Assembly: GCA_964630905.1 (NCBI GenBank)
Contig: CAZVWR010000002.1
Coordinates: 23,531-87,530 of the forward strand
Direction of reading: 5' to 3'
Length of the DNA stretch: 64,000 bases
Source of the DNA: an uncultured Spirochaetales bacterium
Lineage (GTDB): Bacteria > UBP6 > UBA1177
Both the position numbers and the translations under genes were made by a program. How positions within the stretch are numbered: position 1 is the stretch's first letter; each line of letters starts with the position of its first letter. A model generated the notes under the pieces. It was not told the origin of the DNA. It saw nothing but the letters and a program-made list of their open reading frames with translations, and made no database searches. This document shows positions 10,441 through 52,005 of the stretch, in pieces.

Positions 10441-10445
10441 TGAGA

Positions 10446-10742: not shown

Positions 10743-10750
10743 TGAGTTAC

Positions 10751-12957: not shown

Positions 12958-12966
12958 ATCCGGCTC

Positions 12967-32987: not shown

Positions 32988-33356
32988 GTGTTTGTGAATA
33001 CAGACATTATTTCAGGAGGAAACTATGAAAGAGATCGCGAGTACTATTGCAGAGAGGGGTGCGGGTTACTGTTCAAATCCGGATCTGCTGGTTTTGTAAC
33101 GCTCACGGTGAACGGCAACAACTGCCTGATTTCAAAGCGGGTCATCTTTATCGGGACTCTCAACAAGTCAATCGTCCATCCGAGAGAGGTGTTCGCTGCG
33201 GCCATTTCAGATCATGCGGCGGGGATCGTCCTGGTGCACAACCATCCAAGCGGCAACCCCGAACCGAGCAATGAGGACATCATCATGCCCATGAGAATTG
33301 AAAACATCAGAAGCCGGAAAGCTGCCACAGAGCAGAAAGCGACAAAAGCCGCGTGA
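32988..33356 (+). pseudogene. radC: radC-like JAB/MPN gene remnant fused in frame to the tail of a dnaN-like gene
   Basis: IVLVHNHPSGNPEPS JAB motif retained; ends ...IIMPMRIENIRSRKAATEQKATKAA, identical to the C-terminus of the 59098-60324 protein. Confidence 0.75.
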
Positions 33357-34643: not shown

Positions 34644-35540
34644 TCATAATCCCTTAAAAGTAACACGGAAACTCTCAACACCATCCGAAAGAATATCATA
34701 ATCTTCTTCAGTAACCTCACCAATTTTAAGAAATGTTCCAAGAATTGACGAAGAAATATATGGTGTTGATACAATATCATCGGCGTCATCGTCATCATCA
34801 TATATCATAAAAAAAAGACTTTCTCCTTTTAAAACAACTGTGGATTCATATGAGAAAGACCATGAAGCATAAAAAGAATCTTCGATGGTTTCAGTTCTAA
34901 AAATTTCCGTGTCATTTTTAAAAACTATCACAAATATATCAGGTGGTTCAAAAGGCCAAGGATCCCAATCTTCACCATTAGGCATTAAAGATGTCAGCGA
35001 AACATTATGTACCTGAATTCTCCAGCTGCGTCCGAAAATATTTCTGCACACACTGTTTTCACATCTCTGATCTTCTTCACAGTCAGCATTTGAAATACAT
35101 CCTCCAGTATCACCGGTATCACTGGTATCACCTGAATTCCCCGTATTCCCTGAATCTCCGGAATTTCCACTATCTCCTGAGTTTCCGGAATCACCTGTGT
35201 TTCCAGTATTTCCTGAATTACCAGAATCCCCGGAGTTATTTTCATAACGGCTTTCATCAACTAGAACACATCGTGGCTCTGTAAAGTCATTTATAAATTT
35301 ACACTTCTTTTCTTCTGTTCCATCTTCATCTTCACATGAACCGAAAAAAACCCACTCACCATCTACGCATATTTCCGCATCTTTATCACTGTGAGTAGCA
35401 CAGCGGAAAGTTCCGTCAGGTTCACAGTCAGGAGCATTATCTTTAGAATCAGATCCACCGCAGCTTGGCAAAGCCATTAATAAAAAAACTGTCAAAATTA
35501 AAAAAAACATTGGCAAAATTAAAAATTTTATCATTTCCAA
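34644..35540 (-). CDS. Lipoprotein with Cys-rich modules and an (N/D/S)SG/TG repeat linker
   Basis: Lipobox LMALPSC; [45 protein letters not shown]; 10 bp upstream of the protease gene. Confidence 0.6.
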   Translation of the reverse strand: MEMIKFLILPMFFLILTVFLLMALPSCGGSDSKDNAPDCEPDGTFRCATHSDKDAEICVDGEWVFFGSCEDEDGTEEKKCKFINDFTEPRCVLVDESRYENNSGDSGNSGNTGNTGDSGNSGDSGNSGDSGNTGNSGDTSDTGDTGGCISNADCEEDQRCENSVCRNIFGRSWRIQVHNVSLTSLMPNGEDWDPWPFEPPDIFVIVFKNDTEIFRTETIEDSFYASWSFSYESTVVLKGESLFFMIYDDDDDADDIVSTPYISSSILGTFLKIGEVTEEDYDILSDGVESFRVTFKGL

Positions 35541-35870
35541 ACCTCATCATAATTTAAACACAACGGAAGTATTTTAATAAATTTAAAACAGAATAGAAGT
35601 TTTCCCCACCCATAAACAAAATTCCCCCTTCCCCTCATAAACCACAACCTTCGTTTCTATCTGCCTGGGTCGGAAAGATATGAAAGAAAACGGTGAATGA
35701 TGCGGTAAATTTTCATTCCGCACAAGTATTATGCCTCTATGAAAAAGTATGTCAAAAAAGTGAAATTCAGAACCTCAATGGATTTTTATTAACATAGAGT
35801 AACTTTTATTTACAATTATAGTGCAGATGGATATATTGTGGTGATTGAATTACCTCTATGGAGATTTCGT

Positions 35871-37838
35871 ATGGATCAGATCACACACAACACGATAGTA
35901 AATTTTATATGGAATATTGCTGATGATGTATTAAGAGATGTTTATGTTCGTGGTAAGTACCGGGATGTTATTCTTCCAATGACAGTCATCCGGCGCCTTG
36001 ATGCACTTCTTGAGCCGACAAAAGGTGCTGTAATTGAAATGAAAAAACATCTTGATACGGCTGGAATTGCGAATCAGGATGCGGCTTTGTGTCAAGTTGC
36101 CAAAGAAGCGTTTTTTAATAGATCTGCGTTTACTCTTAAAGACTTGAAAAACCGTTCAAAAATACAGCAGTTGAAGGCTGATTTTGAAGAATATCTTGAT
36201 GGGTTTTCTCCGAATGTCCAGGAGATTCTTGATAAATTTAAATTCCGCAATCAGATTCCCACACTTGTAGAGGCAGGAATTCTTGGTTCACTGATTGAAA
36301 AATATATTAATCCTGCAATAAATCTCAGTCCGAAACCCGTGCTTGATTCCAACGGCAATGAAAAAATTCCCGGACTTGATAATCACAGTATGGGTATGAT
36401 TTTTGAAGAGCTTATCCGCCGATTCAATGAGGAGAATAATGAAGAGGCCGGAGAACACTTTACACCTCGTGATGTAGTGAAGCTCATGGCAGACCTGATT
36501 TTTCTTCCAATAGCAGACAAAATTGAGTCAGGAACATACCTTGTTTATGACGGAGCATGTGGAACTGGTGGAATGCTGACTGTGGCTGAAGAAAGACTCC
36601 ACAAACTGGCAAAAGATTCAGGGAAGGAGGTGTCAATACATCTTTACGGTCAGGAAATTCAACCTGAAACTTATGCAATTGCCAAAGCTGATCTCCTGTT
36701 GAAAGGTGAAGGTGCTGAAGCTGAAAACATTATATATGGCTCCACTCTTTCCAGTGATGGTTTTATCTCAAACAAATTTGACTTTATGCTTTCAAATCCG
36801 CCATACGGAAAAAGCTGGAAAACCGATCTTGAAAGAATGGGTGGAAAAAATGATATTAAAGATCCGAGATTTATTATTGAATTTGCAGATGATCCCGAAT
36901 ATAAAATGCTCACAAGATCAAGTGACGGCCAGTTAATGTTCCTGGTGAACAAGCTGATGAAAATGAAGGAAAAAAGCAAGCTTGGCAGTCGTATTGCCCA
37001 GGTTCATAACGGATCATCCCTTTTTACCGGTGATGCCGGACAGGGAGAGAGCAACATCCGCAGATGGATTATAGAAAATGACTGGCTTGAAGCTATAGTT
37101 GCTCTGCCCGAGAATATTTTTTATAACACTGGAATTGCGACATATATCTGGGTGCTTACCAATAAAAAGTCTGAAAACAGAAAAGGAAAAGTGCAACTGA
37201 TAGATGCGACAAAATGGTATCAGTCACTTCGTAAAAATATGGGTAAGAAAAACTGTGAGCTGAATGAAGACCACATTAAAGAAATCTGCGAACTCATTAT
37301 TGCTCCCAAGGAAACAGAGCAGTCAAAGATTTTTCCCAATGACGCATTCGGATATTATAAAGTTCATGTGCTTAGACCGCTTCGTGTAAAAAACATTGAT
37401 CCTGAAAATGTTTATTCAACAAAAGAAATCAAAGACTTTAAAGATAAAAATATGATTGCTGAAGAAGGTTTTCCTGTTATAAAAAAAATTCACAAAAAAG
37501 GAACAGAACCAAATCCTTTGCATGGACTGTTTGAAGTCAAAATCAACGGGAAGAAACAGGTTGTGGAATATCATTTTGACACAGAACTCAGTGACACCGA
37601 ACAAGTTCCACTGCTTGAAAAAGGGGGAATCAGCGAATTTATAGAAAGAGAAGTACTTCCATACACACCTGATGCGTGGATAGACCCGGCAAAAACACAA
37701 ATCGGCTATGAAATATCATTCACACGCCATTTTTATAAACCGGCACCAATGAGAACACTTGAAGAAATAAAAGCAGACATCTTCGCACTTGAAAAAGAGA
37801 CAGATGGACTGCTTGAAGAAATTATCGGGGAAAAGTGA
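35871..37838 (+). CDS. hsdM: Type I restriction-modification methyltransferase subunit (N6-adenine)
   Basis: HsdM N-domain; motif I YDGACGTGGM; motif IV LSNPPYG; ATG at 35871 (ORF track start is a GTG). Confidence 0.9.
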   Translation: MDQITHNTIVNFIWNIADDVLRDVYVRGKYRDVILPMTVIRRLDALLEPTKGAVIEMKKHLDTAGIANQDAALCQVAKEAFFNRSAFTLKDLKNRSKIQQLKADFEEYLDGFSPNVQEILDKFKFRNQIPTLVEAGILGSLIEKYINPAINLSPKPVLDSNGNEKIPGLDNHSMGMIFEELIRRFNEENNEEAGEHFTPRDVVKLMADLIFLPIADKIESGTYLVYDGACGTGGMLTVAEERLHKLAKDSGKEVSIHLYGQEIQPETYAIAKADLLLKGEGAEAENIIYGSTLSSDGFISNKFDFMLSNPPYGKSWKTDLERMGGKNDIKDPRFIIEFADDPEYKMLTRSSDGQLMFLVNKLMKMKEKSKLGSRIAQVHNGSSLFTGDAGQGESNIRRWIIENDWLEAIVALPENIFYNTGIATYIWVLTNKKSENRKGKVQLIDATKWYQSLRKNMGKKNCELNEDHIKEICELIIAPKETEQSKIFPNDAFGYYKVHVLRPLRVKNIDPENVYSTKEIKDFKDKNMIAEEGFPVIKKIHKKGTEPNPLHGLFEVKINGKKQVVEYHFDTELSDTEQVPLLEKGGISEFIEREVLPYTPDAWIDPAKTQIGYEISFTRHFYKPAPMRTLEEIKADIFALEKETDGLLEEIIGEK

Positions 37839-39220
37839 TGAAACCATACCCGAAATATAAAGATTCTGGAATAGTCTGGTTAGGAAAAATACCGGAACAT
37901 TGGGAAAGTGCAAAAATTAGATCAATTTTATCTCCTATAATAGAAAAAAACAGATCAGATCTTCCGCTATTATCCGTAGTTCGCGAAAAAGGAGTTATTA
38001 AGCGAAATATTGAAAGCAAAGAAGAAAACCACAATTATATTCCAGATGATCTTTCAAATTATAAAGTTGTAAAAAAAGGACAGTTTGCAATGAATAAGAT
38101 GAAAGCATGGCAAGGTTCTTATGGAGTCTCAGCCTTTGATGGAATAGTTAGTCCTGCTTATTTTACCTTTCAAATTGATAGAGTGGAAAGAGAATTTTTT
38201 CATGCTGCAATGAGATCAAAGGCATATGTTCCTTTTTTTACGCAAGCTTCTGATGGAGTGCGAGTTGGTCAATGGGATTTGAACCAGTCAAGAATGGGAG
38301 ATATTCCTTTTTTTATCCCTCCTGAATCCGAACAAACACAAATTGCCCGTTATCTTGACTGGCAGACTTCTAAAATAAACAAGTTCATAAAAAACAAAAA
38401 GAAACTCATTGCATTACTGAAAGAACAGAAGCAGAACATCATCAACGAAGCTGTAACAAAAGGCCTCAACCCCAATGTTAAAATGAAAAACAGCGGTGTT
38501 GAATGGATCGGAGAAATCCCGATGCATTGGGAGGCTCTGTATATAAGGCGTTGCACAAAATTCGTGAAAACCGGTGGAACACCAAAAGGTGCCAACGAAT
38601 CGCATTTCTGCGAGAAAGGTTTTAACTGGTTTACTCCATCTGATTTTAAGGAAGAGGTGTTTCTGAAAAATTCTTATCGTCAGTTATCAGAATTAGGCAA
38701 GAAAGATGTAAAGCTGTTTCCAGCAAATACAGTAATGATGATTGGAATAGGCGGTACGATTGGGAAGGTTTCTATTTCCCCTGACATTTCAAGCTGCAAT
38801 CAACAAATCAATGCGATTTTTACAAATGAGAGAGTTGTTTCAATATATATGACTTTTGCTCTAAGGTGCTTAAAAAGCTTCATTATTGAATGTGGAAAAT
38901 ATACAACGATGCCAATTATAAATCAGGATGAAACAAAGACCTTAAAAATTCCCGTACCACCAATTTCTGAACAGCAAGAAATAGTTGCTTTCATAGAAAA
39001 AGAAACTGCTCTCATCGACAAGACCATCGCCCGCACTGAAAAAGAAATTGAACTGATTCAGGAATATCGCACTCGCCTTGTTTCGGATGTTGTAACCGGT
39101 AAGATTGATGTGCGGGATGTTGAAGTTCCAGATTTTGTAGAAGAAATTGTTGAAATTAATGCAGATGAAGATGAAAACGAAGAAGAATTTATTCAGGCAG
39201 GAGATGAGGGAAATGATTAG
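37838..39220 (+). CDS. hsdS: Type I R-M specificity subunit, two target-recognition domains
   Basis: Duplicated TRD + conserved-helix organisation (…LKEQKQNIINEAVTKGLNP… and …EIELIQEYRTRLVSDVVTGKIDV…); ATG overlaps hsdM stop (TGATG). Confidence 0.85.
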   Translation: MKPYPKYKDSGIVWLGKIPEHWESAKIRSILSPIIEKNRSDLPLLSVVREKGVIKRNIESKEENHNYIPDDLSNYKVVKKGQFAMNKMKAWQGSYGVSAFDGIVSPAYFTFQIDRVEREFFHAAMRSKAYVPFFTQASDGVRVGQWDLNQSRMGDIPFFIPPESEQTQIARYLDWQTSKINKFIKNKKKLIALLKEQKQNIINEAVTKGLNPNVKMKNSGVEWIGEIPMHWEALYIRRCTKFVKTGGTPKGANESHFCEKGFNWFTPSDFKEEVFLKNSYRQLSELGKKDVKLFPANTVMMIGIGGTIGKVSISPDISSCNQQINAIFTNERVVSIYMTFALRCLKSFIIECGKYTTMPIINQDETKTLKIPVPPISEQQEIVAFIEKETALIDKTIARTEKEIELIQEYRTRLVSDVVTGKIDVRDVEVPDFVEEIVEINADEDENEEEFIQAGDEGND

Positions 39221-40106
39221 AGCGTTGTTCGAACGGTTTAGAAAAAATATTCCAACTCCAAAAAGAAGTCGATCAACACTTCACTTGAATTGGCATAATC
39301 TGCCTGATGGTTGTAGATGTATGTATCTTTCAAGTGATTTGTATCCTGAACTTTTTGAATTGCGTTTCCCAGATATTTTTAGAAAAGCTGGAGGAGGGTG
39401 GCGACAAAAAAGTTCAAATACATCTCAAAAATATCTCTGGTTTCCTTCAAAATCTGTAACTGAAGATGATATAAAAAAAGTAAATTGTTGGGGGCGAAAA
39501 TTTGGCCAATTTGTAGTGTTGGGGATTAATAAAAACATTGAAGATTATTTCTCTACCGAAATGGACTTCTGTTTGGCGTTAAGCTTCAACAAAGACAATC
39601 CAAAAGAAAAAGAAAGAACCTTTTATGGAGAAGCAGAATATCAAATAAAATACAAAGAAAAAAACGACCCTTACTTAGGTTATCTTTTTGATGGATTGCA
39701 AGATGCCTATGATTATCTGCCTATTTATAGACCAAAAGAGAATATAATACTTACTACTATTCCTTCCGAAAGAACTGAAAAGCTCCCACACAAACTGTTA
39801 AAAAGTGTTGCAGAGAACAAACATCTGGAATATGTCATTCCATATCTAAACTGTGACAAAAAGAAGTTTAAGGGATTGCCCATATCTGAAAAGATTCCAG
39901 AATGGGATCATGTTTTTTCCAATGACAGAAACATTGAATTAAATAAAAACCTTAGCGGAAAAACAGTAATTATAATAGACGATTTATATCAATCCGGTGC
40001 AACGATGTGGTCATTTGCAAAATATTTAAAAAGCAAAAAAGCAAAAGAAGTCATTGGATTGGTTTGTGTTAAATCTTTAAGGGACACAGATAATACGGAT
40101 GGATGA
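39204..40106 (+). CDS. shosT: Phosphoribosyltransferase (PRTase type I) domain protein, ShosT-like
   Basis: C-terminal VIIIDDLYQSGATMWSFAKYLKSKKAKEVIGLVCV = PRTase PRPP-binding loop. Start overlaps the hsdS stop; an ATG at 39213 is equally possible. Pairing with a downstream DprA-like gene matches the described ShosTA toxin/antitoxin defence pair. Confidence 0.5.
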   Translation: MREMIRALFERFRKNIPTPKRSRSTLHLNWHNLPDGCRCMYLSSDLYPELFELRFPDIFRKAGGGWRQKSSNTSQKYLWFPSKSVTEDDIKKVNCWGRKFGQFVVLGINKNIEDYFSTEMDFCLALSFNKDNPKEKERTFYGEAEYQIKYKEKNDPYLGYLFDGLQDAYDYLPIYRPKENIILTTIPSERTEKLPHKLLKSVAENKHLEYVIPYLNCDKKKFKGLPISEKIPEWDHVFSNDRNIELNKNLSGKTVIIIDDLYQSGATMWSFAKYLKSKKAKEVIGLVCVKSLRDTDNTDG

Positions 40107-40109
40107 TAT

Positions 40110-41096
40110 ATGATTGATGCCAAAGTGCTGCAATTTATTTTAGCAAAGGGCGCCGGCGATGCTGCTTTAAAAAAGTTTCTTGAATATATCAATAAAAATG
40201 GGATCGAAAGTGTTTCAGAATTGTTGAAGACTCCCCAAGAAATCGTTTATAACTTAAATATTAAAGAAGATGTCGCCAGCAACATAATAAATACTGAAAA
40301 TGAGGCAATGATATTAAGCGATAATTTGAAAAAAGATGAAATTACTCTTCTGACAAACATAGACAAAGATTATCCATCAAAAAAATTGAAGGTTTTAGAA
40401 AAAGATGCCTCCCCAGTTTTATTCGTGAAAGGAAATAAAGATTTATTGTCAATGAAGTCAATTGGTTTTTGTGGTTCCAGAAAAGCTTCAGAAAAAGGAA
40501 TAGATATAACACAAAACTGTAGCAAGCAGTTGGTGGAAAAAGATTATTGCATCATAAGTGGATATGCTCATGGAGTTGATATGGCTGCACACATATCGGC
40601 ACTTAAAAATGGAGGAAAAACTATCTTTGTATTAGTGGATGGTATTTTAAGATTTACTGAAAAAAAAGAAATTAAGGAGTATTTATCTAGTTCAAACCAT
40701 TTAATAGTTTCACAATTTCCTCCGAACATAACATGGATCGGGCACAATGCGATGCGAAGAAATTTAACAATAATTGGATTGTCTGATGCGATGATTCTTG
40801 TTGAGTCAGGCATCACTGGCGGAACTTTTGCGGCAGGGGAAGAGACTTTAAAGGTGAAAAGACCATTATTTGTTATAGATTTTGCTAAGCCTGGTCCGTC
40901 TGCTGAAGCAAATCCTTATTTTATAAAAAAAGGTGGAATCTCTATAAGAGGAAAAAAAGGTGTTCCTAATTTAAGCGAATTAATCAAAATAACATCATCA
41001 GAGCCTTCTACTGTTGGAAAAGAAGAAAAAACATTCGGTGAACAACTATCTTTATTCCAATTTGGTGATATTAAAATTGAGGAGAGCGACGAATGA
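40110..41096 (+). CDS. shosA: DprA/Smf-like (SLOG Rossmann fold) protein, ShosA-like
   Basis: GFCGSRKASEKG...IISGYAHGVDMAAHISALKNGGKTIFVLVDGI...RRNLTIIGLSDAMILVESGITGGTFAAGEE matches the DprA Rossmann-domain pattern; 4 nt after the shosT-like stop. Confidence 0.55.
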   Translation: MIDAKVLQFILAKGAGDAALKKFLEYINKNGIESVSELLKTPQEIVYNLNIKEDVASNIINTENEAMILSDNLKKDEITLLTNIDKDYPSKKLKVLEKDASPVLFVKGNKDLLSMKSIGFCGSRKASEKGIDITQNCSKQLVEKDYCIISGYAHGVDMAAHISALKNGGKTIFVLVDGILRFTEKKEIKEYLSSSNHLIVSQFPPNITWIGHNAMRRNLTIIGLSDAMILVESGITGGTFAAGEETLKVKRPLFVIDFAKPGPSAEANPYFIKKGGISIRGKKGVPNLSELIKITSSEPSTVGKEEKTFGEQLSLFQFGDIKIEESDE

Positions 41097-41731
41097 CAGT
41101 TCCCGCTAATCCAAAGATTTATCACATAACTCATGTTGAAAACCTCGCTTCAATTATTTCTGACGGTTGTATCTGGTCTGATGCAAAAACTGTACATAAT
41201 CAAGGAGTTGTCAAAATTGGGATGTCAGAAATCAAGCGGAGAAGGTTGTATGAAAATCAACTCACAAGTCATCCCGGTCTTTATGTCGGGGAGTGTGTTC
41301 CGTTTTATTTCTGTCCGCGATCTATTATGCTCTTCCTGTTTTATATGAACAATCATAAAGATATAACATACAAAGGAGGACAGGAGCCAATCATTCATCT
41401 TGAAGCAGATTTAAAAAAAGTGGTAAATTGGGCTGAACAGAACAACAAAAGGTGGGCTTTCACTCTTTCCAATGCAGGAGCATCCTACTTTGAAGACAGA
41501 AAAAGTCTTGAGAATCTGGATGAACTTGACTGGAATGCCATTAATTCCACAAGCTGGCATGAATGCAGAGAAAAGAAGCAGGCAGAATTTCTCATTGAGG
41601 AAAAATTTCCATGGAGTCTTATTGATAGAATTGGAATATATTCTGAAAATTATTATAATAATGTAATCCGTTCTTTTAATGGAAACAGTCATCGTCCAGT
41701 GGTTGAGATTAAAAGAAGCTGGTATTATTGA
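41093..41731 (+). CDS. darT: DarT-like ssDNA ADP-ribosyltransferase toxin (DUF4433)
   Basis: IYHITHVENLASIISDGCIWS ... YVGECVPFYFCPRSIMLF matches the DUF4433/DarT signature; ATGA overlap with upstream stop. Confidence 0.7.
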   Translation: MTVPANPKIYHITHVENLASIISDGCIWSDAKTVHNQGVVKIGMSEIKRRRLYENQLTSHPGLYVGECVPFYFCPRSIMLFLFYMNNHKDITYKGGQEPIIHLEADLKKVVNWAEQNNKRWAFTLSNAGASYFEDRKSLENLDELDWNAINSTSWHECREKKQAEFLIEEKFPWSLIDRIGIYSENYYNNVIRSFNGNSHRPVVEIKRSWYY

Positions 41732-41739
41732 GAGGAACT

Positions 41740-42795
41740 ATGATGAAATTTACTCAGGGTGATATTTTCACCGCAAACACAGAAGCAATTGTCAATACAG
41801 TGAACTGTGTCGGAGTTATGGGAAGAGGAATCGCTCTTCAGTTTAAAAAAAGATTCCCTGAAAATTTCAAAGAATATGAATCTGCATGCAGTAGAGAAGA
41901 AGTTGTTCCGGGGAAAATGTTCGTTTATGAAACAGGAGCTCTTTTTAATCCGAGAATAATTATTAATTTCCCCACAAAACGACATTGGCGTGGCGAAAGT
42001 AAAATTGAAGACATAGAAAATGGATTGATTGATCTTGTCAGAATTATTCAAGAAAAGAACATTAAATCAATTGCATTGCCGCCTCTTGGATGTGGATTGG
42101 GTGGTTTGAACTGGTCTGATGTGAAAATGCTTATTCAAAAATATCTGATCGCATTAAATGATGTTGAAGTTCTTGTTTTTGAACCTATTGGAGCTCCGGC
42201 TGCCGAAGAAATGGTGAAAAACCGGAAAGTTCCGGAAATGACATCCGGCAGAGCTGCTTTAATTGAACTGGTTGCTCACTATTTAAATGGATTGCTTGAC
42301 CCCATCGTAACACTTCTTGAAGTTCATAAATTAATGTATTTTCTTCAGGCATCAGGAGAAAATCTGAGACTTAATTATACGAAAGGACCTTTCGGACCTT
42401 ATTCTAAAAATCTGAGCCATGTTCTGAATGCTATAGAAGGACATTTGATTTCAGGTTATGCGGATGGAGGCGATAAACCGGACAAACGACTTAAACTGGT
42501 TCCAGGTGCTTATGAAAGTGCATCCGAATTTCTTGAAACGCAGAAAAATACAATAAAAAATCTGGAACGGGTCGCTGATCTTGTGAAAGGATTTGAAACC
42601 CCGTTTGGAATGGAACTCTTATCCACTGTTCATTGGGTGGTAGTTAATGAAAAAGCTGAGTCAAAAGAAGATGTTGTTGCAAAAGTTCATGCATGGGGAG
42701 AAAGAAAAAAACAATTTACGCCGCGGCAGATTTTTATAGCTCTTGATGTCCTTTCAAAAAAGAAATGGGTGGATGTTTCTTCATGGGAAAGCTAA
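41740..42795 (+). CDS. darG: DarG-like macrodomain antitoxin
   Basis: N-terminal macrodomain (GDIFTANTEAIVNTVNCVGVMGRGIALQFKK ... IALPPLGCGLGGL) plus ~200-aa C-terminal domain; overlaps darT stop. Confidence 0.7.
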   Translation: MMKFTQGDIFTANTEAIVNTVNCVGVMGRGIALQFKKRFPENFKEYESACSREEVVPGKMFVYETGALFNPRIIINFPTKRHWRGESKIEDIENGLIDLVRIIQEKNIKSIALPPLGCGLGGLNWSDVKMLIQKYLIALNDVEVLVFEPIGAPAAEEMVKNRKVPEMTSGRAALIELVAHYLNGLLDPIVTLLEVHKLMYFLQASGENLRLNYTKGPFGPYSKNLSHVLNAIEGHLISGYADGGDKPDKRLKLVPGAYESASEFLETQKNTIKNLERVADLVKGFETPFGMELLSTVHWVVVNEKAESKEDVVAKVHAWGERKKQFTPRQIFIALDVLSKKKWVDVSSWES

Positions 42796-45700
42796 ATATA
42801 AAACCAACCGACACAACTGAAGCCGGACTTGAATCTCTCATTGTTAAATCACTGATTGAAGAATCGAAATATGTTGCAGGTGATCCTCGTGATTATGACA
42901 GAACACATGCTGTTGACCTTGTTAAACTGACTGATTTTATTAAATCTACTCAGCCGGAAATTGCCGATTCTCTTTCCCTTGATGCTGACTCTCCGACCCG
43001 GACCCAATTCCTTCACAGGCTTCAGGGTGAAATAGCAAAAAGGGGCGTGATTGATGTTTTGCGTAGAGGATTGAATCACGGACCCCACTCAATAACAGCA
43101 TTTTACGGAACTCCGACAGCAAACAATGAAAAAGCAAAAGAACTGTTTGAGAAGAATATTTTCAGTGTGACCCGTCAGCTCCGTTACAGCTCAAGTGAAA
43201 CACAACTTGCTCTCGATATGGGCGTTTTCATAAATGGATTGCCTGTGGCAACATTTGAGCTGAAAAACAAGCTGACAAAACAGACTGTTGAAGATGCAGT
43301 GCAGCAATATAAGAATGATCGTGACTCCAAAGAACTGCTTTTCCAGTTTGGTCGGTGTATGGTTCATTTTGCGCTAGATGATCATGAAGTTGAAATGTGT
43401 GCTCACTTAAAAGGAAAAGACTCATGGTTTCTGCCATTTAATAAAGGTTTTAATGATGGAGCAGGAAATCCGCCCAATCCGGATGGCCTGGCAACAGATT
43501 ATTTATGGAAAGAAATACTAACAAAGCCGAGACTGACAGATATTATTGAGAATTATGCTCAGATCGTTGAAGAAAAAGACCCGAAAACCGGAAAGAAAAA
43601 ATATAGGCAGATATTTCCACGGTATCATCAGTTAAAAGCAGTTCGAAAGCTGCTCTCAGACGCACAAATCAACGGAGCCGGGAAACGATATCTCATTCAA
43701 CATTCTGCCGGAAGCGGCAAGTCAAATTCAATCGCCTGGCTTGCTCATCAACTCGTCGGGCTTGAAAAAAACAAAAAACCTGTATTTGACTCCATAATTG
43801 TTGTAACAGATCGAAGGGTTCTTGATAAGCAGATCAAAGACACAATTAAATCATTTGCTCAGGTTTCCAACATCATAGGTCATGCAGAAAGATCCGGAGA
43901 CTTGAAACGGTTTATCAGTGAAGGCAAGCAGATAATAATCACAACAGTCCAGAAATTTCCTTTCATAATTAATGAGATCGGAGATGAGCACAGAAATAAT
44001 AAGTTTGCAATAATTATTGATGAAGCTCACTCAAGCCAGGGAGGAAAAGCTGCAACGAAAATGAATATTGCTTTAGCATCTACATCAGAAGTGAGGGAAA
44101 ACTGCGAAAAATATGATGATTTGCTGATGGTTGCTGAAAGAAGTCCTGAATATACTGGCGAGTGTGAAGATGTTGACTTGGAAGATCAAATCAATTTTAT
44201 TATGGAAAGCAGAAAGATGCTTAATAATGCAAGCTATTTTGCATTCACTGCAACTCCGAAAAACAAGACTCTTGAAATATTCGGAGAACCTTTTCCGCAA
44301 CCTGACGGCAAGATTAAACATAAGCCTTTTGACAGTTATACAATGAAGCAGGCAATACAGGAAGGATTTATAAGGGATGTGCTTAAAAATTACACTCCAG
44401 TGGAAAGTTATTATAAAATCACAAAAAAAATTGAGGACGACCCATATTTTGATTCTAAAAGAGCCCAGAAAAAACTCAGAAAGTTTGTAGAATCGAACAA
44501 ATATGCAATTAAAGAAAAAGCAGAGATAATAATTGATCATTTCCAGACTCAGGTGATTTCCCGTCGTAAAATCGGGGGTGAAGCCCGTGCAATTGTTGTA
44601 ACAAGCGGGATAATGCGTGCAATTGAATATTACTATGAAATAAGCGCCTACATAAAAGAAAAAAAACTGCAGTACAAAGCCATCGTTGCATTTTCAGGGG
44701 AACATGAATACGGTGGGGGAAAAGTCACGGAATCTACAATTAATGGATTTCCAAGTAATCAGATAGAAGATAAAATTATTGAGGATCCATACCGTATTCT
44801 GGTTGTTGCCGATAAATATCTTACTGGCTATGACGAACCATTGATGCACACAATGTATGTTGATAAGCCGCTTGAAGGAATTAAAGCTGTTCAGACACTT
44901 TCCCGGCTTAATAGAGCCCATCCTAAAAAACACGATACTTTCGTTCTGGATTTTTATAATGACACAGTAACCATTCAGAGTGCGTTCGCAGATTATTACA
45001 GAACAACCATATTGAGTGAAGAGACCGACCCCAATAAGCTTCACGATCTCAAATCTGACATTGATCTTTATCAAGTTTATTCATTTGAGCAGATTGATGA
45101 TCTTGTGGAAAAATATCTGTCAGGAGCTGAAAGAGATTCTATTGATCCTATCCTTGACACATGTGTTGCTGTTTATAATAGTGAACTTGATGAAAATGGA
45201 CAGGTTGATTTTAAAGGTAAGGCAAAGGCATTTGTAAGAACATACGGGTTTCTTTCTGCACTTCTTCCGTATAACAACGCTGAATGGGAAAAACTCTCGA
45301 TATTTCTTAATTTTCTAATACCCAAACTTCCTGCCCCGAAAGAAGAAGATCTTTCAAAAGGTATTTTGGAAACTATTGATCTTGAAAGTTACAGAGCTGA
45401 AATGAAAGCGACAATAAATATCTCTCTGCCTGATGAAGATGCTGAACTTGGAGCTGTGCCTACCACAGGAGGTGGTCGTAAACCCGAGCCGGAGCTTGAT
45501 CAACTCAGCAACATATTGAAAACTTTTAATGATCTTTTTGGGAATATCGAGTGGAAAGATGATGATAAGATCAGGAAAGTCATTGCTGAAGAAATTCCCG
45601 AAATGGTTGCCGCTGACACAGCATATCAGAATGCAATGAAAAATTCTGATAAACAGAACGCCAGAATAGAGCATGACAAGGCCCTCCAAAGAGTAATTCT

Positions 45701-45827
45701 AACGCTTATTGCCGATCACACGGAGCTTTATAAACAGTTCAGCGACAATCCATCTTTCAATAAATGGTTGGGAGACACAATATTTAACGCAACTTATTCA
45801 GAGAATGAAAATAATATAAACAGGTGA
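42783..45827 (+). CDS. hsdR: Type I restriction enzyme R subunit
   Basis: Walker A HSAGSGKSNS, DEAH box IIIDEAHSSQ, helicase motifs, HsdR N-terminal nuclease region; start overlaps darG stop. Confidence 0.9.
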   Translation: MGKLNIKPTDTTEAGLESLIVKSLIEESKYVAGDPRDYDRTHAVDLVKLTDFIKSTQPEIADSLSLDADSPTRTQFLHRLQGEIAKRGVIDVLRRGLNHGPHSITAFYGTPTANNEKAKELFEKNIFSVTRQLRYSSSETQLALDMGVFINGLPVATFELKNKLTKQTVEDAVQQYKNDRDSKELLFQFGRCMVHFALDDHEVEMCAHLKGKDSWFLPFNKGFNDGAGNPPNPDGLATDYLWKEILTKPRLTDIIENYAQIVEEKDPKTGKKKYRQIFPRYHQLKAVRKLLSDAQINGAGKRYLIQHSAGSGKSNSIAWLAHQLVGLEKNKKPVFDSIIVVTDRRVLDKQIKDTIKSFAQVSNIIGHAERSGDLKRFISEGKQIIITTVQKFPFIINEIGDEHRNNKFAIIIDEAHSSQGGKAATKMNIALASTSEVRENCEKYDDLLMVAERSPEYTGECEDVDLEDQINFIMESRKMLNNASYFAFTATPKNKTLEIFGEPFPQPDGKIKHKPFDSYTMKQAIQEGFIRDVLKNYTPVESYYKITKKIEDDPYFDSKRAQKKLRKFVESNKYAIKEKAEIIIDHFQTQVISRRKIGGEARAIVVTSGIMRAIEYYYEISAYIKEKKLQYKAIVAFSGEHEYGGGKVTESTINGFPSNQIEDKIIEDPYRILVVADKYLTGYDEPLMHTMYVDKPLEGIKAVQTLSRLNRAHPKKHDTFVLDFYNDTVTIQSAFADYYRTTILSEETDPNKLHDLKSDIDLYQVYSFEQIDDLVEKYLSGAERDSIDPILDTCVAVYNSELDENGQVDFKGKAKAFVRTYGFLSALLPYNNAEWEKLSIFLNFLIPKLPAPKEEDLSKGILETIDLESYRAEMKATINISLPDEDAELGAVPTTGGGRKPEPELDQLSNILKTFNDLFGNIEWKDDDKIRKVIAEEIPEMVAADTAYQNAMKNSDKQNARIEHDKALQRVILTLIADHTELYKQFSDNPSFNKWLGDTIFNATYSENENNINR

Positions 45828-45834: not shown

Positions 45835-46689
45835 TTGAAAACAGGACATAGATCTACACTTATAATTTTAATCATCGCAACCGTAGTTATCATTATAATA
45901 GGGTTTGGATATCCTTTTTTTACAAACGAAACCATGAACATGTCAAGTCTTTCAAGTTGGATTTCAGCTATAATATCCAGTACTGCTTTCATATGGCTTA
46001 TATTCGGTTATTTTTTGCAGATGAAATCTTTAAATATACAAAGTATAGAAGTCGAACGGATGGCAAAGTTTGCAGCTTTGCAACAGATTCAAAATGCATT
46101 TGGCTTATTAAATGAAAAGGTAAAAAATTCAGGATATAAAGACGTTCATACTTTATCTGTGGAATTTCCGATGACTATGGCATTCACCATTAAAAATGTT
46201 GTTGAAAATAAAACCGATGAAAAACTGAAAATGGAGTGGATGTCTAAATGGACAAATTTTAAAAGTCTGTGTGATGAATTTATTGGCACTTTCGCAATGA
46301 TGTTAAAGCTTTATGATGAAGCACCTGAAAAAGAGATGGTTCAAAAAAAGAAACTGACTACCATAGAGAGTTCAATGAAAACCCTGAACATTGATGCAAA
46401 AACAATAAAGGATTTTGAGTCCATCGTGGACTATAAAAATGCATGGTATATTAAGACGAATTTCAAAAGAGCCCAAGAAATTCCAGTATTAGCTTTTTAT
46501 TCAAAGGCGGCTGGGATGTTGGCCGAGAGTATGATTCGTTTTGAACCAGGCATTGATATAGTCGAACTTGAGATACTTGAGGACAGTGAAAAAACCATTC
46601 CTGGTTGTGTAAAGAGCGAATATTTAGAAAAATTAAGAAAAAAGGTTGGCGATAGGGAAAAAGAAAGAGAGTCCAAAAAGAAGGTCTAA
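45835..46689 (+). CDS. Hypothetical membrane protein (2 N-terminal TM helices + ~220-aa helical cytoplasmic domain)
   Basis: LIILIIATVVIIIIGF and ISSTAFIWLIFGYFL hydrophobic helices; TTG start 8 nt after hsdR. Confidence 0.45.
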   Translation: MKTGHRSTLIILIIATVVIIIIGFGYPFFTNETMNMSSLSSWISAIISSTAFIWLIFGYFLQMKSLNIQSIEVERMAKFAALQQIQNAFGLLNEKVKNSGYKDVHTLSVEFPMTMAFTIKNVVENKTDEKLKMEWMSKWTNFKSLCDEFIGTFAMMLKLYDEAPEKEMVQKKKLTTIESSMKTLNIDAKTIKDFESIVDYKNAWYIKTNFKRAQEIPVLAFYSKAAGMLAESMIRFEPGIDIVELEILEDSEKTIPGCVKSEYLEKLRKKVGDREKERESKKKV

Positions 46690-46697
46690 GTTTAAAT

Positions 46698-47414
46698 ATG
46701 GTCAAGAAAAAGTTAAACCATAGTGTTTTATTCAGTCAGTCAGGTATTAATTATTCAACGACGGTTGAAGCTGCATTAGCAAAAACCATAATTCATGCGC
46801 TCGAACAGTACAAAATAAAATGGTCTTTGGGAAACAAGGTGTTATATGCAATGTGTAAAAATCACCCTGGACATAAAACTGAAGAGGAAATTCTGGCAAA
46901 AATATGGCTTATCGGAAGATCTTACGCTGCTGCCCTTGAGAGAAGAAAGAACAAAGAAAAAGAGTCAAGTAACGACGATTTTTACAATAATGCGGCAGAT
47001 CAGATCCAACAATCTGAAATAGATAAATGGATTGAGGAGAGTCGAAACAACAATGACCCTCAGGTTCACATTAAAACACACAAAAAGGTAACAACTCTTT
47101 TTGAAACGATAACTGGGCTCGAAAAACGGTCTCTTGCATCAAAATACCTTCACTTCCACCTGCCGAAAAAGTTTTTCATATATGATTCCAGGGCTGCTGG
47201 GGCAATGCCGGCTCTTTTACGGGAACTCGGCATTAAAAAGGTCACTGTCACCCATAAGGGCGAGGAATACGATGAAAAATATGCAGCGTTTTACGAGAAA
47301 TGTTTTGTCGCCCAGAAAGCAATAAAAGAAAAGTTCAACATAAATTGCAGTTGCAGAGATCTTGATACTGTGTTGATACATTTTGATAAGATCAAGAAAA
47401 CATTAAATATTTAA
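46698..47414 (+). CDS. Hypothetical protein (238 aa)
   Basis: ORF 9 nt after the preceding gene; no motif recognised. Confidence 0.4.
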   Translation: MVKKKLNHSVLFSQSGINYSTTVEAALAKTIIHALEQYKIKWSLGNKVLYAMCKNHPGHKTEEEILAKIWLIGRSYAAALERRKNKEKESSNDDFYNNAADQIQQSEIDKWIEESRNNNDPQVHIKTHKKVTTLFETITGLEKRSLASKYLHFHLPKKFFIYDSRAAGAMPALLRELGIKKVTVTHKGEEYDEKYAAFYEKCFVAQKAIKEKFNINCSCRDLDTVLIHFDKIKKTLNI

Positions 47415-47425
47415 GGGTGGTAATT

Positions 47426-48355
47426 ATGAGTAATAAAATAAAAAATGTTAAAAAGGTTCTTTTCATAAAACTTGGTGAGAAAGGTAAGTTTGAGGAGGAC
47501 TGTATTGAGAAAAGCAACACACTGAAACTTGATTACACAGAAATAGATCATAATGCTTGCACTAACGGTAACTGGGATAAGGTTAGAGAACATTACTTAA
47601 TTAAAGGTAATAAGCCGCAAGTAGCGACAGGTCATGTAAACCAAATAAAGCGTTTTTATGAAGAAGATAAGAAAACTCTCTGGATAACCTTTTATTCAAA
47701 CAAGCTATGGTGGTGTTTTTCAACTCCGAAGATCACAAAACTTCATGACAGCACCAAAACCCGTCCAGTAATCGGTAAGTGGTCTGACAAAGACATAAAT
47801 GGGAAAAAACTTTCTTTCGATAAGCTAAGCGGGAAGTTGCTGAAAACCCAAGGGTTCAGAGGTACTATTTGTGAGGTTCCGGAAAAAGAATATGTTCTGG
47901 CTAAAATTAATAGTGAAAAAAACCAAGATGTTTTGGATGTTGAAAAAGCTGTTTCAGTCCTGCAATCAAAGTTGACCAAGTTAATTCAAACTCTTCATTG
48001 GAAAGATTTTGAAACCCTTGTTGATCTTATATTCAGACAAGCAGGATGGCAAAGAGTTAGTGAGGTAGGAAAAACACAGAAAACATTAGATCTTGATCTT
48101 TTTGCGCCGGTAACTGGTGAAAGAGCACTGGTGCAGATAAAAGCACAGTCAAAATTTTCTGAGTTTGAAGAGTATAAGAAGGACTTTGAAAACATGAGCA
48201 GTTTCAACAAATTCTTTTATGTTGTACACACTTCTGACGAAAAACTTAAAAGTTATAAAAATGTCGGGAATATAAATATATGGCTCATCGAAAAAGTGGC
48301 AGAGCTGACAATTTCTGCCGGGTTAGTAGACTGGGTTATAAAGAAAACTTCCTGA
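47426..48355 (+). CDS. Protein with C-terminal Mrr-cat type PD-(D/E)xK restriction-endonuclease domain
   Basis: WKDFETLVDLIFRQAGWQRV ... TLDLDLF ... ALVQIKAQS (D...QxK core) as in Mrr N-terminal catalytic domains; unknown ~180-aa N-domain. Confidence 0.5.
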   Translation: MSNKIKNVKKVLFIKLGEKGKFEEDCIEKSNTLKLDYTEIDHNACTNGNWDKVREHYLIKGNKPQVATGHVNQIKRFYEEDKKTLWITFYSNKLWWCFSTPKITKLHDSTKTRPVIGKWSDKDINGKKLSFDKLSGKLLKTQGFRGTICEVPEKEYVLAKINSEKNQDVLDVEKAVSVLQSKLTKLIQTLHWKDFETLVDLIFRQAGWQRVSEVGKTQKTLDLDLFAPVTGERALVQIKAQSKFSEFEEYKKDFENMSSFNKFFYVVHTSDEKLKSYKNVGNINIWLIEKVAELTISAGLVDWVIKKTS

Positions 48356-48505: not shown

Positions 48506-48979
48506 ATGAAATTTCATTCAAAGATCTTAGGTGCGTTAATTCAGAAACAGAGGTTTGAGCACAAACGCTTGACAAGGAAGGGACTCGCAAAAATGCTCGG
48601 CTACAGCAATCTAGGTCGCGGGATCTGGCAGATTGAGCAGATCGAGAACGGGATAATCGAAGAACCGCTTGTTTCAAGGATCTGCGAGCTTCTTGATATT
48701 TCAGAGCTTGACCGGAAACGGTGTGAACTTGAGGAGAAGAAACAACTCCTTGAATATAGGATGGCTCTGCCACCGTTCAAACCGCACATCTCCGTCCGGC
48801 TTGGAAGCTGTTTCGGAAAGAACTATGCAATTCCTGAAGAGATCCTGGGAGTTGACGGACACATCTCATACGCGATAGGATTTGCAAAAACCATGAAACA
48901 GGCAGTGCATCTATGGATAACCCGTGACTTGAGCTATGTTGTTGAACCGGATGGGAAATGCAAGGTTGAGGGGCATTAG
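48506..48979 (+). CDS. HTH (XRE-like) DNA-binding protein
   Basis: RLTRKGLAKMLGYSNLGRGIWQIEQIENG helix-turn-helix; strong SD aaaggagga before the ATG at 48506. Confidence 0.55.
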   Translation: MKFHSKILGALIQKQRFEHKRLTRKGLAKMLGYSNLGRGIWQIEQIENGIIEEPLVSRICELLDISELDRKRCELEEKKQLLEYRMALPPFKPHISVRLGSCFGKNYAIPEEILGVDGHISYAIGFAKTMKQAVHLWITRDLSYVVEPDGKCKVEGH

Positions 48980-49078: not shown

Positions 49079-49186
49079 GGTTGTCTATTTCCCACAACAG
49101 CCAGGCCGTCAACCTCGGAAATGTTGTCTATATCCTACAAGAATAGTTCCTCTGCAGCATAATTGTTGTCTATATCCTACAAGAAT
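49079..49186 (+). repeat. Three 22-23 bp direct repeats (gttgtctat[a/t]tcc[t/c]acaa...) with 16-20 bp spacers, bracketed by an 11-bp direct repeat cctcccgattt (48991-49001 and 49207-49217)
   Basis: Read directly; iteron-like. Confidence 0.7.

Positions 49187-51231: not shown

Positions 51232-52005
<774 letters not shown>

Follow-up and report, generated by a model that had tools for sequence, protein, structure and literature searches.

The insertion of DarTG into Type I restriction-modification (R-M) operons was already noted in 2016 (PMC5179494), and an island with the order hsdM-hsdS-darT-darG-hsdR was characterised in 2025 (PMC12255303). This EPEC hsdM-hsdS-darTG2-hsdR island provides phage defence and is read from a single regulated promoter (PMC12255303). 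A 2024 survey describes such nesting, termed "guilt-by-embedding", for Type I R-M, BREX, DISARM, and Hma systems and gives 96.7% as the share of embedded genes that run in the same direction as their host system (bioRxiv 10.1101/2024.01.29.577857). According to this survey, PrrC of the prr locus (hsdM-hsdS-prrC-hsdR) is a single ABC-ATPase/anticodon-nuclease protein, which is almost exclusively embedded and is inhibited by the R-M complex EcoprrI (bioRxiv 10.1101/2024.01.29.577857).

The window, which is the whole 64,000-nucleotide stretch of DNA analysed here, contains seven co-directional open reading frames (ORFs) on the plus strand at 35871-45827, in the order hsdM, hsdS, PRTase gene, DprA-like gene, darT, darG, and hsdR. 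The co-directional order hsdM-hsdS-darT-darG-hsdR, the macrodomain DarG, and the position of DarTG between hsdS and hsdR are shared with the EPEC island (PMC12255303), but the window has a second toxin-antitoxin pair between hsdS and darT and three unrelated genes after hsdR. It lacks the M48 peptidase downstream and the RptR-like regulator upstream; upstream of hsdM there is no ORF for a small RptR-type regulator. With co-oriented cargo lying between the components of a host system, the operon conforms to the embedding survey, whose accessible part does not name DarTG, ShosTA, or PsyrTA (bioRxiv 10.1101/2024.01.29.577857). No description of the four-gene cassette (PRTase, DprA-like, DarT, DarG) was found in the searchable literature. 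A preliminary description of this DNA had held that two stacked toxin pairs in one Type I operon are not a described arrangement, which is too strong a statement in view of PMC5179494, PMC12255303, bioRxiv 10.1101/2024.01.29.577857, and two sister loci that each stack two systems (L040 and L053). We favour, with a probability of about 0.75, a mobile Type I R-M operon whose hsdS-hsdR insertion slot holds two autonomous toxin-antitoxin, abortive-infection modules. The Type I operon is complete, and its cargo is a real yet fairly ordinary case of defence genes nesting in restriction operons.

Gene content and layout of the operon

Gene identities were obtained by Pfam, PADLOC, and NCBIfam profile searches, whose domain assignments have E-values far beyond chance and bear out the seven co-directional genes and all domain calls made earlier. 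The same gene string was independently assembled in two Logan runs, SRR10083294 and SRR10083292.

Table 1. Features of the operon and of the genes behind it (window coordinates; junctions measured from the most likely start codons).
Feature	Position	Strand	Basis or remark	Junction to next gene
Putative operon promoter region, upstream of hsdM	35541..35870	+		
hsdM, Type I methyltransferase subunit	35871..37838	+	Pfam, PADLOC, motifs	1-4 nt overlap
hsdS, specificity subunit, two target-recognition domains	37838..39220	+	Specificity_I, Methylase_S	8 nt overlap (PRTase ATG at 39213)
PRTase-domain toxin candidate, 297 aa	39213..40106	+	distinct N-terminal domain and type I PRTase core	3 nt gap
DprA-like antitoxin candidate, 328 aa	40110..41096	+	DNA_processg_A, PsyrA/ShosA models	4 nt overlap (ATGA)
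darT, ssDNA ADP-ribosyltransferase toxin	41093..41731	+	Pfam, NCBIfam, Thermus DarT match	8 nt gap
darG, macrodomain ADP-ribosylglycohydrolase antitoxin	41740..42795	+	PADLOC, NCBIfam, PDB matches	13 nt overlap (hsdR ATG at 42783)
hsdR, restriction/translocase subunit, 1014 aa	42783..45827	+	Pfam, PADLOC, motifs	7 nt gap
g8	45835-46689	+	behind hsdR	8 nt gap
g9	46698-47414	+	precomputed Pfam HI_0787_N; family of ~1,940 proteins	11 nt gap
g10	47426-48355	+	Mrr_cat 4.4e-6 (Pfam)	

HsdM matched N6_Mtase (3.5e-57) and HsdM_N (1.8e-21) of Pfam and MTase_I of PADLOC (4.6e-243), and its translation shows the NPPY motif (MLSNPPYGKSW) and the SAM motif (YDGACGTGGML). HsdS was covered in full length by Specificity_I (PADLOC, 3.1e-111, residues 2-426) and also matched Methylase_S (Pfam, 1.2e-18). 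For HsdR, the matches were HSDR_N (1.5e-17), SWI2_SNF2 (1.1e-28), ResIII, and a T1R_D3-like domain in Pfam and REase_I in PADLOC (2.7e-45), together with a visible DEAH box (IIIDEAHSSQ) and a D...ELK nuclease motif. Identity to orthologous loci is 72-87% for hsdM and only 24-47% for hsdS, the latter being expected because recognition domains are variable. Orthologues of hsdR at 57-80% identity occur across many phyla.

Judged from their sequences, DarT and DarG are bona fide, since both exceed the NCBI equivalog cut-offs (toxin_DarT, 231 bits versus 150; antitoxin_DarG, 473 bits versus 250), and the earlier reading of DUF4433 plus macrodomain as DarTG holds. DarT also matched the Pfam DarT family (5.1e-62) and Thermus DarT (7omv, 1.5e-33), in which Glu165 aligns with an Ala of the crystal chain. 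We take this chain to be the E160A catalytic mutant, and E165 is therefore read as the catalytic Glu. DarG matched its PADLOC model at 2.4e-137, and its macrodomain matched M. tuberculosis DarG closely (5m3i, 2.6e-54), with PTKRHW aligned to PTKKHW. The module is of the macrodomain type, DarTG2. The C-terminal domain (residues 167-337) matched the solved DarG fragment 7yk3_B, which has a role in DarT binding.

Neighbouring genes among the seven overlap by 1-13 nt or lie no more than 8 nt apart. Overlapping start and stop codons, as described earlier for the whole cluster, were found at four of the six junctions, the other two being such short gaps; the PRTase start codon was also called in an independent assembly. 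Neither terminator-like sites (9 versus 9.9 in shuffled sequence) nor promoter-like sites (42 versus 39.7) are in excess within the cluster. The tight spacing and the lack of above-chance terminators suggest that the seven genes are co-transcribed. A 330-nt gap separates hsdM from a divergent upstream gene, and sigma-70-like hexamer pairs lie there at 35789-35816 and 35809-35837, which are consensus matches with a frequency not above that of shuffles.

The PRTase/DprA-like pair

The first inserted pair resembles ShosTA of E. coli (PMC11961720, PMC12961424) in consisting of two genes, toxin then antitoxin, with a PRTase-domain toxin bearing an acidic PRPP loop and a DprA-like antitoxin. The Pfam Pribosyltran match of the PRTase protein (5.6e-7) is confined to the PRPP loop, which is intact, and the PsyrT match of this protein spans just profile positions 574-684; the protein's link in sequence to ShosT and PsyrT is hence limited to this loop. 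The DD of the loop is invariant across the PRTase family, and the equivalent D331/D332 of ShosT are essential for its toxicity (PMC11961720, PMC12961424), by analogy to which the PRTase protein may be toxic. The DprA-like protein matched DNA_processg_A (Pfam, 4e-42) and, in PADLOC, PsyrA (7.6e-58, 194 bits) better than ShosA (6.3e-47, 158 bits), a likeness to PsyrTA/RqlHI; a genuine PsyrT with a DprA-like ORF occupies the same hsdS-hsdR slot at the sister locus L053. PsyrT, however, joins a RecQ-like helicase and a PRTase in one protein of ~690 aa, whereas the PRTase protein of the window has no helicase domain. Judged from these matches, the PRTase gene belongs to a distinct, putative toxin family of ~285 aa and is not closely related to E. 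coli ShosT. The pair is therefore ShosTA/PsyrTA-class by analogy only, and of the ShosT/ShosA match proposed earlier the two-gene module stands while the close relationship does not.

An alternative is that these are ordinary competence genes, comFC and dprA, which came into the operon by chance. JGI labels homologues "predicted amidophosphoribosyltransferase", ComFC and DprA interact in transformation (PMC9005727), and among PDB sequences the DprA-like protein comes closest to S. pneumoniae DprA (3uqz, 4e-22), ahead of ShosA (8zva and 9vzo, ~3e-18). However, the PRTase protein reached 24 bits against the comF cut-off of 233.55 (TIGR00201) and the DprA-like protein 116.8 bits against the dprA cut-off of 191.15 (TIGR00732), with far stronger matches of the latter protein to the PsyrA and ShosA defence models. 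A conserved 4-Cys zinc finger, needed for ComFC function (PMC9005727), was sought in the PRTase protein and its family and is absent. The pair is wedged between hsdS and darT in the window, and pairs of this type are found on mobile elements and in defence loci. With scores so far under the ComF/DprA cut-offs and no zinc finger, a competence pair is extremely improbable, and the toxin-antitoxin reading survived this profile check.

Wherever a related locus is long enough to tell, a DprA-like gene lies directly 3' of the PRTase gene. No hsdM, hsdS, hsdR, DarT, or DarG was found near the pair in 96 related loci, and all 80 metagenome loci retrieved have it away from any R-M system. The same holds for five of the six contexts that were looked at, the remaining one being a DISARM-like system. 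Its settings elsewhere include housekeeping neighbourhoods, an integrative mobilisable element, a place beside a Gabija-like pair, and the interior of a DISARM-like system. The PRTase pair is hence autonomous elsewhere.

Variable cargo at the hsdS-hsdR junction

The slot was surveyed in orthologous loci that contain hsdS as well as hsdR, 42 in number and drawn from many phyla, whose hsdR is 48-80% identical. Cargo was present between hsdS and hsdR in 19 of the 42 and between hsdM and hsdS in 26 of 38 loci, and seven orthologous loci carried none. DarTG was the slot cargo in four loci, alone in three (L008, L014, L048) and stacked with PDC-M62A/B in the fourth (L040); at L053, HEC-01A/B is stacked with PsyrT (E = 1.8e-268) and the DprA-like ORF. 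Other cargo included PDC-S02/YhcG, PDDEXK_3, PD-Lambda-2_B, Schlafen/AlbA_2, HEC-01, PDC-M62, PsyrTA, GmrSD-like genes, RhuM, and TmtA. The slot in sister operons holds more than a dozen unrelated cargo types. PDC-S02, PDC-S05, PDC-M62, HEC-01, and HEC-05/06, all present in sister loci, match exactly what bioRxiv 10.1101/2024.01.29.577857 catalogues. The comparison establishes the variable slot that the preliminary description had suspected at the S-R junction.

The two modules differ in their relation to this slot. Pairwise identities of DarG and HsdR co-vary (r = 0.95, 10 pairs from five DarTG-bearing loci), which shows co-divergence, and the darG stop and hsdR start overlap, as ATGA in L008 and L048 but over 13 nt in the window. 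DarTG thus seems to have resided there for long and to have diverged alongside hsdR. The nearest homologue of the PRTase pair is 44-49% identical and located elsewhere, and its GC content is 0.33 against 0.365-0.389 in the flanking hsd and darTG genes; the pair therefore looks like a later insertion between hsdS and darT, an order drawn from five loci and a small GC difference.

The co-divergence could instead reflect functional dependence beyond mere linkage. By PrrC-like licensing, HsdMSR would hold the toxin(s) inactive until a phage anti-restriction protein frees them, the locus being one three-layer machine. The cargo sits in the slot of PrrC (discussed in bioRxiv 10.1101/2024.01.29.577857), likewise an abortive-infection effector between hsdS and hsdR, and the DarG-HsdR co-variation and the translational coupling of darG to hsdR would fit such control. 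At L085, which belongs to another lineage, an in-frame fusion joins a DISARM-type DUF1156 methyltransferase to the DprA-like protein that partners a homologous PRTase, so that physical coupling of the PRTase module to a modification enzyme can evolve. However, each module has a dedicated antitoxin, whereas the inhibitor of PrrC is the EcoprrI complex (bioRxiv 10.1101/2024.01.29.577857), and in E. coli there is no binding between ShosT and ShosA, the latter working through ssDNA and RecA (PMC11961720, PMC12961424). The diversity of unrelated cargo points to an insertion hotspot and not to co-adapted partners, and the PRTase pair lies outside recognisable Type I systems in 96/96 related loci. 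DarTG systems also defend when cloned without hsd genes. Unlike the prr locus, the modules of the window carry their own antitoxins and mostly reside elsewhere; we know of no antitoxin of PrrC itself. Licensing by the restriction complex, as put forward earlier, thus found no support and is quite improbable.

A selfish role is somewhat less remote, in which both pairs would mainly serve to retain the locus, killing cells from which it is lost, and would ride along on an often-transferred R-M operon, with defence secondary or absent. Stabilisation of Type I operons was proposed as one reason for DarTG insertions (PMC5179494), and the selfish benefit of embedding is discussed in bioRxiv 10.1101/2024.01.29.577857. 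Horizontal mobility of the hsdMSR lineage is clear from hsdR genes of 75-80% identity in Melioribacteraceae, Gammaproteobacteria, Victivallales, Kiritimatiellales, Fibrobacteraceae, and Legionella, and remnants of RadC and an integrase lie beside the island. Against this, DarTG2 in an hsdMSR island and E. coli ShosTA protect from phage experimentally (PMC12255303, PMC11961720), and most other slot cargo consists of nuclease or ATPase defence genes that have no addiction properties. Addiction is hence unlikely, and it is compatible with the insertion-slot explanation.

Predicted working of the operon and its flanks

In the favoured arrangement of two autonomous modules in a slot, one promoter upstream of hsdM would read all seven genes, with most junctions translationally coupled. 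The R-M complex would form the first line of defence by cutting unmodified incoming DNA, while each toxin would be restrained by its own antitoxin. DarG would bind DarT and strip ADP-ribose from DNA; the PRPP-dependent toxin would be countered by the DprA-like protein, probably via ssDNA and RecA like ShosA. The toxins may be released when a phage upsets antitoxin supply or DNA metabolism. Nesting would then give co-regulation, joint horizontal transfer, and operon stabilisation, and would not mean that the restriction enzyme physically licenses the toxins.

The cluster runs on past hsdR with three tightly packed co-directional genes (45835-48355; Table 1). None of them was found in any of 79 hsdR-related loci, and the g9 and g10 pair recurs behind a DUF4145 gene at L178; the three probably form an appended module of their own and do not belong to the main finding. 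The island is flanked by a RadC fragment and a truncated integrase.

The operon and its two nested pairs

The defence cluster consists of seven consecutive ORFs, for all of which profile searches against Pfam and PADLOC agreed with the domain calls of the preliminary description. Two sequencing runs (Logan) yielded the identical gene string in separate assemblies. The HsdR translation contains a DEAH box (IIIDEAHSSQ) and a D...ELK nuclease motif; owing to these, together with the HsdM motifs, the full-length HsdS and the uninterrupted hsdR frame, the R-M genes look functional, and both methylation and ATP-dependent cleavage are predicted. Junction distances were computed with the most plausible start codons, and the start of the PRTase gene is the one called in an independent assembly too. 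Terminator-like and promoter-like sites within the cluster were no more frequent than in shuffled sequence, and nothing in the layout speaks against a single transcript or proves one. No small ORF for an RptR-like regulator was detected upstream of hsdM.

Features of the window and of three comparison loci (positions of the latter are those of each locus)
Feature	Position	Strand	Junction with next gene	Description
Kelch/collagen protein	29623-31962
RadC-like JAB gene	32988-33356	+		truncated, left of island
Collagen-like protein	34644-35540	-		secreted
9-nt periodic repeats	35122-35238			encode collagen-like Gly-X-X
Seven-gene operon	35871-45827	+
hsdM		+	1-4 nt overlap	N6_Mtase 3.5e-57, HsdM_N 1.8e-21, PADLOC MTase_I 4.6e-243; NPPY and SAM motifs in translation
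hsdS		+	8 nt overlap	PADLOC Specificity_I 3.1e-111, residues 2-426 of 461; full length; two target-recognition domains
PRTase gene	39213-40106	+	3 nt gap	candidate toxin
DprA-like gene	40110-41096	+	4 nt overlap	candidate antitoxin
darT		+	8 nt gap
darG		+	13 nt overlap
hsdR		+	7 nt gap	HSDR_N, ResIII, SWI2_SNF2, T1R_D3; N-terminal PD-(D/E)xK nuclease domain, SF2 translocase; uninterrupted single ORF, 1014-1020 aa
g8	45835-46689	+	8 nt gap	284 aa, hydrophobic N-terminus; no family match
g9	46698-47414	+	11 nt gap	238 aa, family of about 1,940 proteins, precomputed Pfam HI_0787_N
g10	47426-48355	+		309 aa, C-terminal Mrr_cat nuclease domain
Last co-directional gene	48506-48979
26-nt direct repeats	49119-49144, 49161-49186			intergenic; 96% identical, 42 nt apart
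Tyrosine recombinase	50371-50916	-		phage-integrase family, truncated, 181 aa, right of island
Collagen-like protein	51232-52005	-		secreted; with Lcl_C domain
9-nt periodic repeats	51647-51817			encode collagen-like Gly-X-X
L040, Fibrobacteraceae MAG CAVTJU010000013	3463-12993			hsdS - PDC-M62A (734 aa) - PDC-M62B (370 aa) - darT - darG - hsdR; hsdR matches at 10001-11260 and 11251-12993
L053	163-9122			hsdS fragment - HEC-01A - HEC-01B - 87-aa ORF - PsyrT (695 aa, E 1.8e-268) - 481-aa DprA-like ORF - hsdR
L085	8001-12922			45%-identical PRTase gene, then one 1358-aa ORF

The darT product scored 231.2 bits against the NCBIfam toxin_DarT equivalog (cut-off 150), matched Pfam DarT (DUF4433) at 5.1e-62, and aligned end to end with Thermus DarT (7omv, 1.5e-33). 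Its Glu165, predicted to be the catalytic ARTT-motif glutamate, stands at a column occupied by Ala in the crystallised Thermus chain, which we take to be the E160A catalytic mutant. Directly downstream, the darG product gave 2.4e-137 with PADLOC and 472.8 bits against the antitoxin_DarG equivalog (cut-off 250); its N-terminal macrodomain closely resembles that of M. tuberculosis DarG (5m3i, 2.6e-54), and at the C-terminus residues 167-337 align with the solved DarG fragment 7yk3_B, presumably the DarT-binding part. Since both equivalog cut-offs were exceeded and the 7omv, 5m3i and 7yk3_B alignments concur, the two genes are assigned by sequence to DarTG of the macrodomain type, DarTG2. DarT of characterised systems attaches ADP-ribose to thymidines in ssDNA, and DarG removes it (PMC5179494, PMC12255303).

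The PRTase protein (297 aa) matched Pribosyltran at 5.6e-7, and its DprA-fold neighbour matched DNA_processg_A at 4e-42. For the latter, the best PADLOC model was PsyrA (7.6e-58, profile positions 34-314 of 398), ShosA gave 6.3e-47, and the solved ShosA structures 8zva and 9vzo in the PDB were matched at about 3e-18; the two defence models scored far better (194 and 158 bits) than the dprA model. The partner adjoining the PRTase gene is thus of the ShosA/PsyrA type by PADLOC and PDB matches, ShosA being the one that the preliminary description had named. Assignment to competence proteins (ComFC/DprA), the outcome it had named as contrary to its reading, did not occur: both comF (24 bits against a cut-off of 233.55) and dprA (116.8 against 191.15) stayed below their NCBIfam cut-offs, as did PRK10736 (103 against 495). 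ComFC depends on an N-terminal 4-Cys zinc finger (PMC9005727), which is lacking here: the PRTase family alignment shows no CxxC pair, and C120 is the sole Cys in it conserved at 90% or above. The competence identity was hence rejected on three grounds: the cut-off scores, the lack of a zinc finger and the genomic context. The pair possibly descends from a ComFC-DprA pair.

The proposed match to ShosT/ShosA held for the PRPP loop and the DprA-like partner, but not for the two-domain architecture of ShosT. The E. coli protein has 424 aa, with an N-terminal pyrophosphatase-like Rossmann domain and a C-terminal PRTase (PMC11961720, PMC12961424), an arrangement that the PRTase protein does not share. 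The PADLOC ShosT and PsyrT models touch it at the PRPP loop only, a single-sequence PDB search with it did not find ShosT at E≤1, and a profile of 66 family members reached ShosT only at E=0.7, aligning ShosT 329-363. The loop itself, D256-D257-L-Y-Q-S-G, is invariant in these 66 members, and D256/D257 correspond to ShosT D331/D332, the mutation of which abolishes toxicity (PMC11961720, PMC12961424). In PsyrTA/RqlHI the toxin joins a RecQ-like helicase to a PRTase (~690 aa), unlike the protein here, which is matched by the PsyrT model at profile positions 574-684 only (3e-6) and in which Pfam found no helicase domain. Because the ShosT architecture fails while the PRPP loop and the DprA-like partner hold, we read the pair as a putative third architecture in the class of PRTase toxins with DprA-like antitoxins, beside ShosTA and PsyrTA/RqlHI. 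By analogy it would work like ShosTA, and toxicity and defence are predicted.

The PRTase family, of ~285-aa proteins, is of moderate size (226 cluster representatives, E≤1e-30, among 1.84 billion), and the protein had no match in plasmid or phage collections. In six contexts obtained by exact protein look-up, a DNA_processg_A gene followed the PRTase gene every time: two were housekeeping neighbourhoods, a third was another such neighbourhood with the pair directly behind an HTH/M78-peptidase gene, and the remainder were an integrative mobilisable element, a site adjoining an OLD-TOPRIM/UvrD (Gabija-like) pair, and the interior of a DISARM-like system. Likewise, in 80 metagenome loci the DprA-like gene lies directly 3' of the PRTase gene wherever the downstream sequence suffices. 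None of 96 PRTase-related loci had a match to hsdM, hsdS, hsdR, DarT or DarG. The pair is an autonomous module, and its residence in a Type I operon beside DarTG is therefore exceptional for the family and not required. As the PADLOC ShosT and PsyrT models match at the PRPP loop only, current annotation likely misses this family, which is strictly paired with a DprA-like gene and is a candidate for toxicity and defence.

Cargo slots and probable history of the hsdMSR lineage

Relatives of HsdR, 57-80% identical with one at 48% (80% being the best in GTDB genomes), were found across widely separated phyla, in Melioribacteraceae, Gammaproteobacteria, Victivallales, Kapabacteria, Kiritimatiellales, Spirochaetaceae, Fibrobacteraceae, Clostridia, Legionella, Chlorobiaceae and Mycobacterium, and the hsdMSR operon is horizontally mobile. 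When cargo was defined as more than 400 bp between hsdS and hsdR, 19 of the 42 loci having both genes carried it, and its diverse types show this junction to be a variable insertion slot. DarTG was the cargo in four orthologous loci (L008, L014, L040, L048), and others contained PDC-S02/YhcG nuclease, PDDEXK_3, PD-Lambda-2_B, Schlafen/AlbA_2, HEC-01A/B, PDC-M62A/B, PDC-M24B, and a genuine PsyrT (E 1.8e-268) accompanied by a DprA-like ORF. The hsdM-hsdS junction forms a second slot, filled oftener (26 of the 38 loci having both genes) and empty in the window; its cargo, in loci L003-L056, includes RhuM (PDC-S05), GmrSD-like HEC-05/06, TmtA, PD-Lambda-3_B and RmrA-like M78 proteins. Both slots were filled in 11 loci, and neither in 7.

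Stacks of two systems recur in the hsdS-hsdR slot: L040 combines PDC-M62A/B with DarTG, and the gene order of L053 places a different PRTase/DprA-like pair together with another system in the same slot, so that the window is the third case. The hsdR of L040 may be frameshifted, since it matches in two pieces. DarTG insertion in Type I operons was already noted in 2016 (PMC5179494), and a 2025 study characterised an hsdM-hsdS-darTG2-hsdR island driven by one regulated promoter, whose hsdS-hsdR site it named as a potential hotspot of recombination (PMC12255303). A 2024 survey dealt with embedding in Type I R-M systems (bioRxiv 10.1101/2024.01.29.577857). Neither a PRTase/DprA-like pair within a Type I operon nor the four-gene stack turned up in a literature search. 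The view that two nested pairs had not been described is too strong: within the literature searched it fits the four-gene stack, but not the DarTG insertion or two-system stacking. No new category of system is opened; the operon is a clean natural example of defence cargo accumulating in Type I R-M operons.

Pairwise identities of DarG and HsdR were closely correlated (r=0.95, 10 pairs from five DarTG-bearing loci), and the darG stop and the hsdR start share an ATGA in L008 and L048, with a 13-nt overlap in the window. Both observations agree with an old linkage of darTG to hsdR which sister operons have lost or replaced. The extra system lies directly after hsdS and upstream of darT in the window and in L040 alike, and hence new cargo seems to enter immediately after hsdS. 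The PRTase pair has a GC content of 0.33, slightly below the 0.365-0.389 of the flanking hsd and darTG genes, and its closest homologue is only 44-49% identical; both fit a pair that was acquired later and independently. The picture is of one mobile hsdMSR lineage in which there are two slots for insertion, DarTG is an ancient associate, and a second system has repeatedly been added directly after hsdS.

Proposed working and licensing

The whole mechanism is proposed on grounds of homology, and co-transcription, toxicity and triggers are predicted. As a first layer, HsdM2S would methylate host DNA, and HsdR would cleave unmodified invaders. Two independent toxin-antitoxin modules would form a second layer, in which DarT would ADP-ribosylate ssDNA and block replication, with DarG as an enzymatic and binding antidote, and the PRTase toxin would draw on PRPP to disrupt nucleotide or DNA metabolism, damage that the DprA-like protein would counter via ssDNA and RecA in the manner of ShosA. 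Relatives are known to be triggered by host shut-off with antitoxin decay, and by ssDNA, SSB or replication proteins of phages (PMC11961720, PMC12961424).

The preliminary description further suggested that the restriction complex possibly licenses the toxins, which occupy the slot of PrrC in the prr locus. PrrC, the effector between hsdS and hsdR of that locus, has to our knowledge no antitoxin of its own. The EcoprrI R-M complex keeps PrrC inactive, and this effector occurs almost only embedded (bioRxiv 10.1101/2024.01.29.577857). Neither module here is of this PrrC type, a single effector, lacking an antitoxin and almost exclusively embedded: each toxin gene has an adjacent cognate antitoxin gene, and the PRTase pair was outside Type I R-M in 96 of 96 related loci, so that physical licensing is not supported. 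A small probability is kept alive by the DarG/HsdR co-divergence and by a fusion of the DprA-like partner to a DUF1156 methyltransferase. The fusion was seen in L085 (also L086, L087, L100, L101), a DISARM-like type of locus with the order SNF2 - GmrSD - PRTase - DprA::DUF1156 - DUF499, where the 1358-aa ORF encodes a DprA-like domain, a low-complexity linker and a DUF1156 (DrmMI-type) methyltransferase in frame, and it is present on several independent contigs. From this fusion, and from the co-divergence and translational coupling of DarTG with HsdR, one may conceive that the pairs are guards sensing how the modification/restriction machinery around them fares, such as its inhibition by phage anti-restriction proteins, within a three-layer, physically coupled immune operon. 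We regard this as improbable; if true, the nesting would be functional rather than incidental. A weaker variant, likewise improbable, would be cross-talk between the two toxin pairs: DarT makes ssDNA lesions, and the DprA-like antitoxin would work via ssDNA and RecA. Most plausibly, what the nesting offers is shared regulation, transfer as one unit and a more stable operon. According to the same survey, 96.7% of the genes found embedded point the same way as the system that hosts them (bioRxiv 10.1101/2024.01.29.577857).

Flanking genes and repeats

Three genes, g8, g9 and g10, are packed directly behind hsdR and may constitute a separate restriction-like module; none of them was present in 79 hsdR-related loci. 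A g9-g10 pair of 83% identity follows a DUF4145 gene in another locus (L178), and a g9 homologue lies near another Mrr_cat protein in three more (L094-L096). A search for att-like repeats, direct or inverted, on either side of the island or of the inserted pair returned chance-level short matches and collagen-like coding repeats only, and the window contains no tRNA gene. The truncated RadC-like and integrase genes suggest mobile-element remnants around the defence cluster. The two intergenic 26-nt direct repeats, which follow the last co-directional gene, possibly form an operator-like site. The 9-nt periodic repeats lie within the two minus-strand genes for secreted Gly-X-X proteins, and these collagen-like genes, as well as the Kelch/collagen gene, are unrelated to the defence operon.
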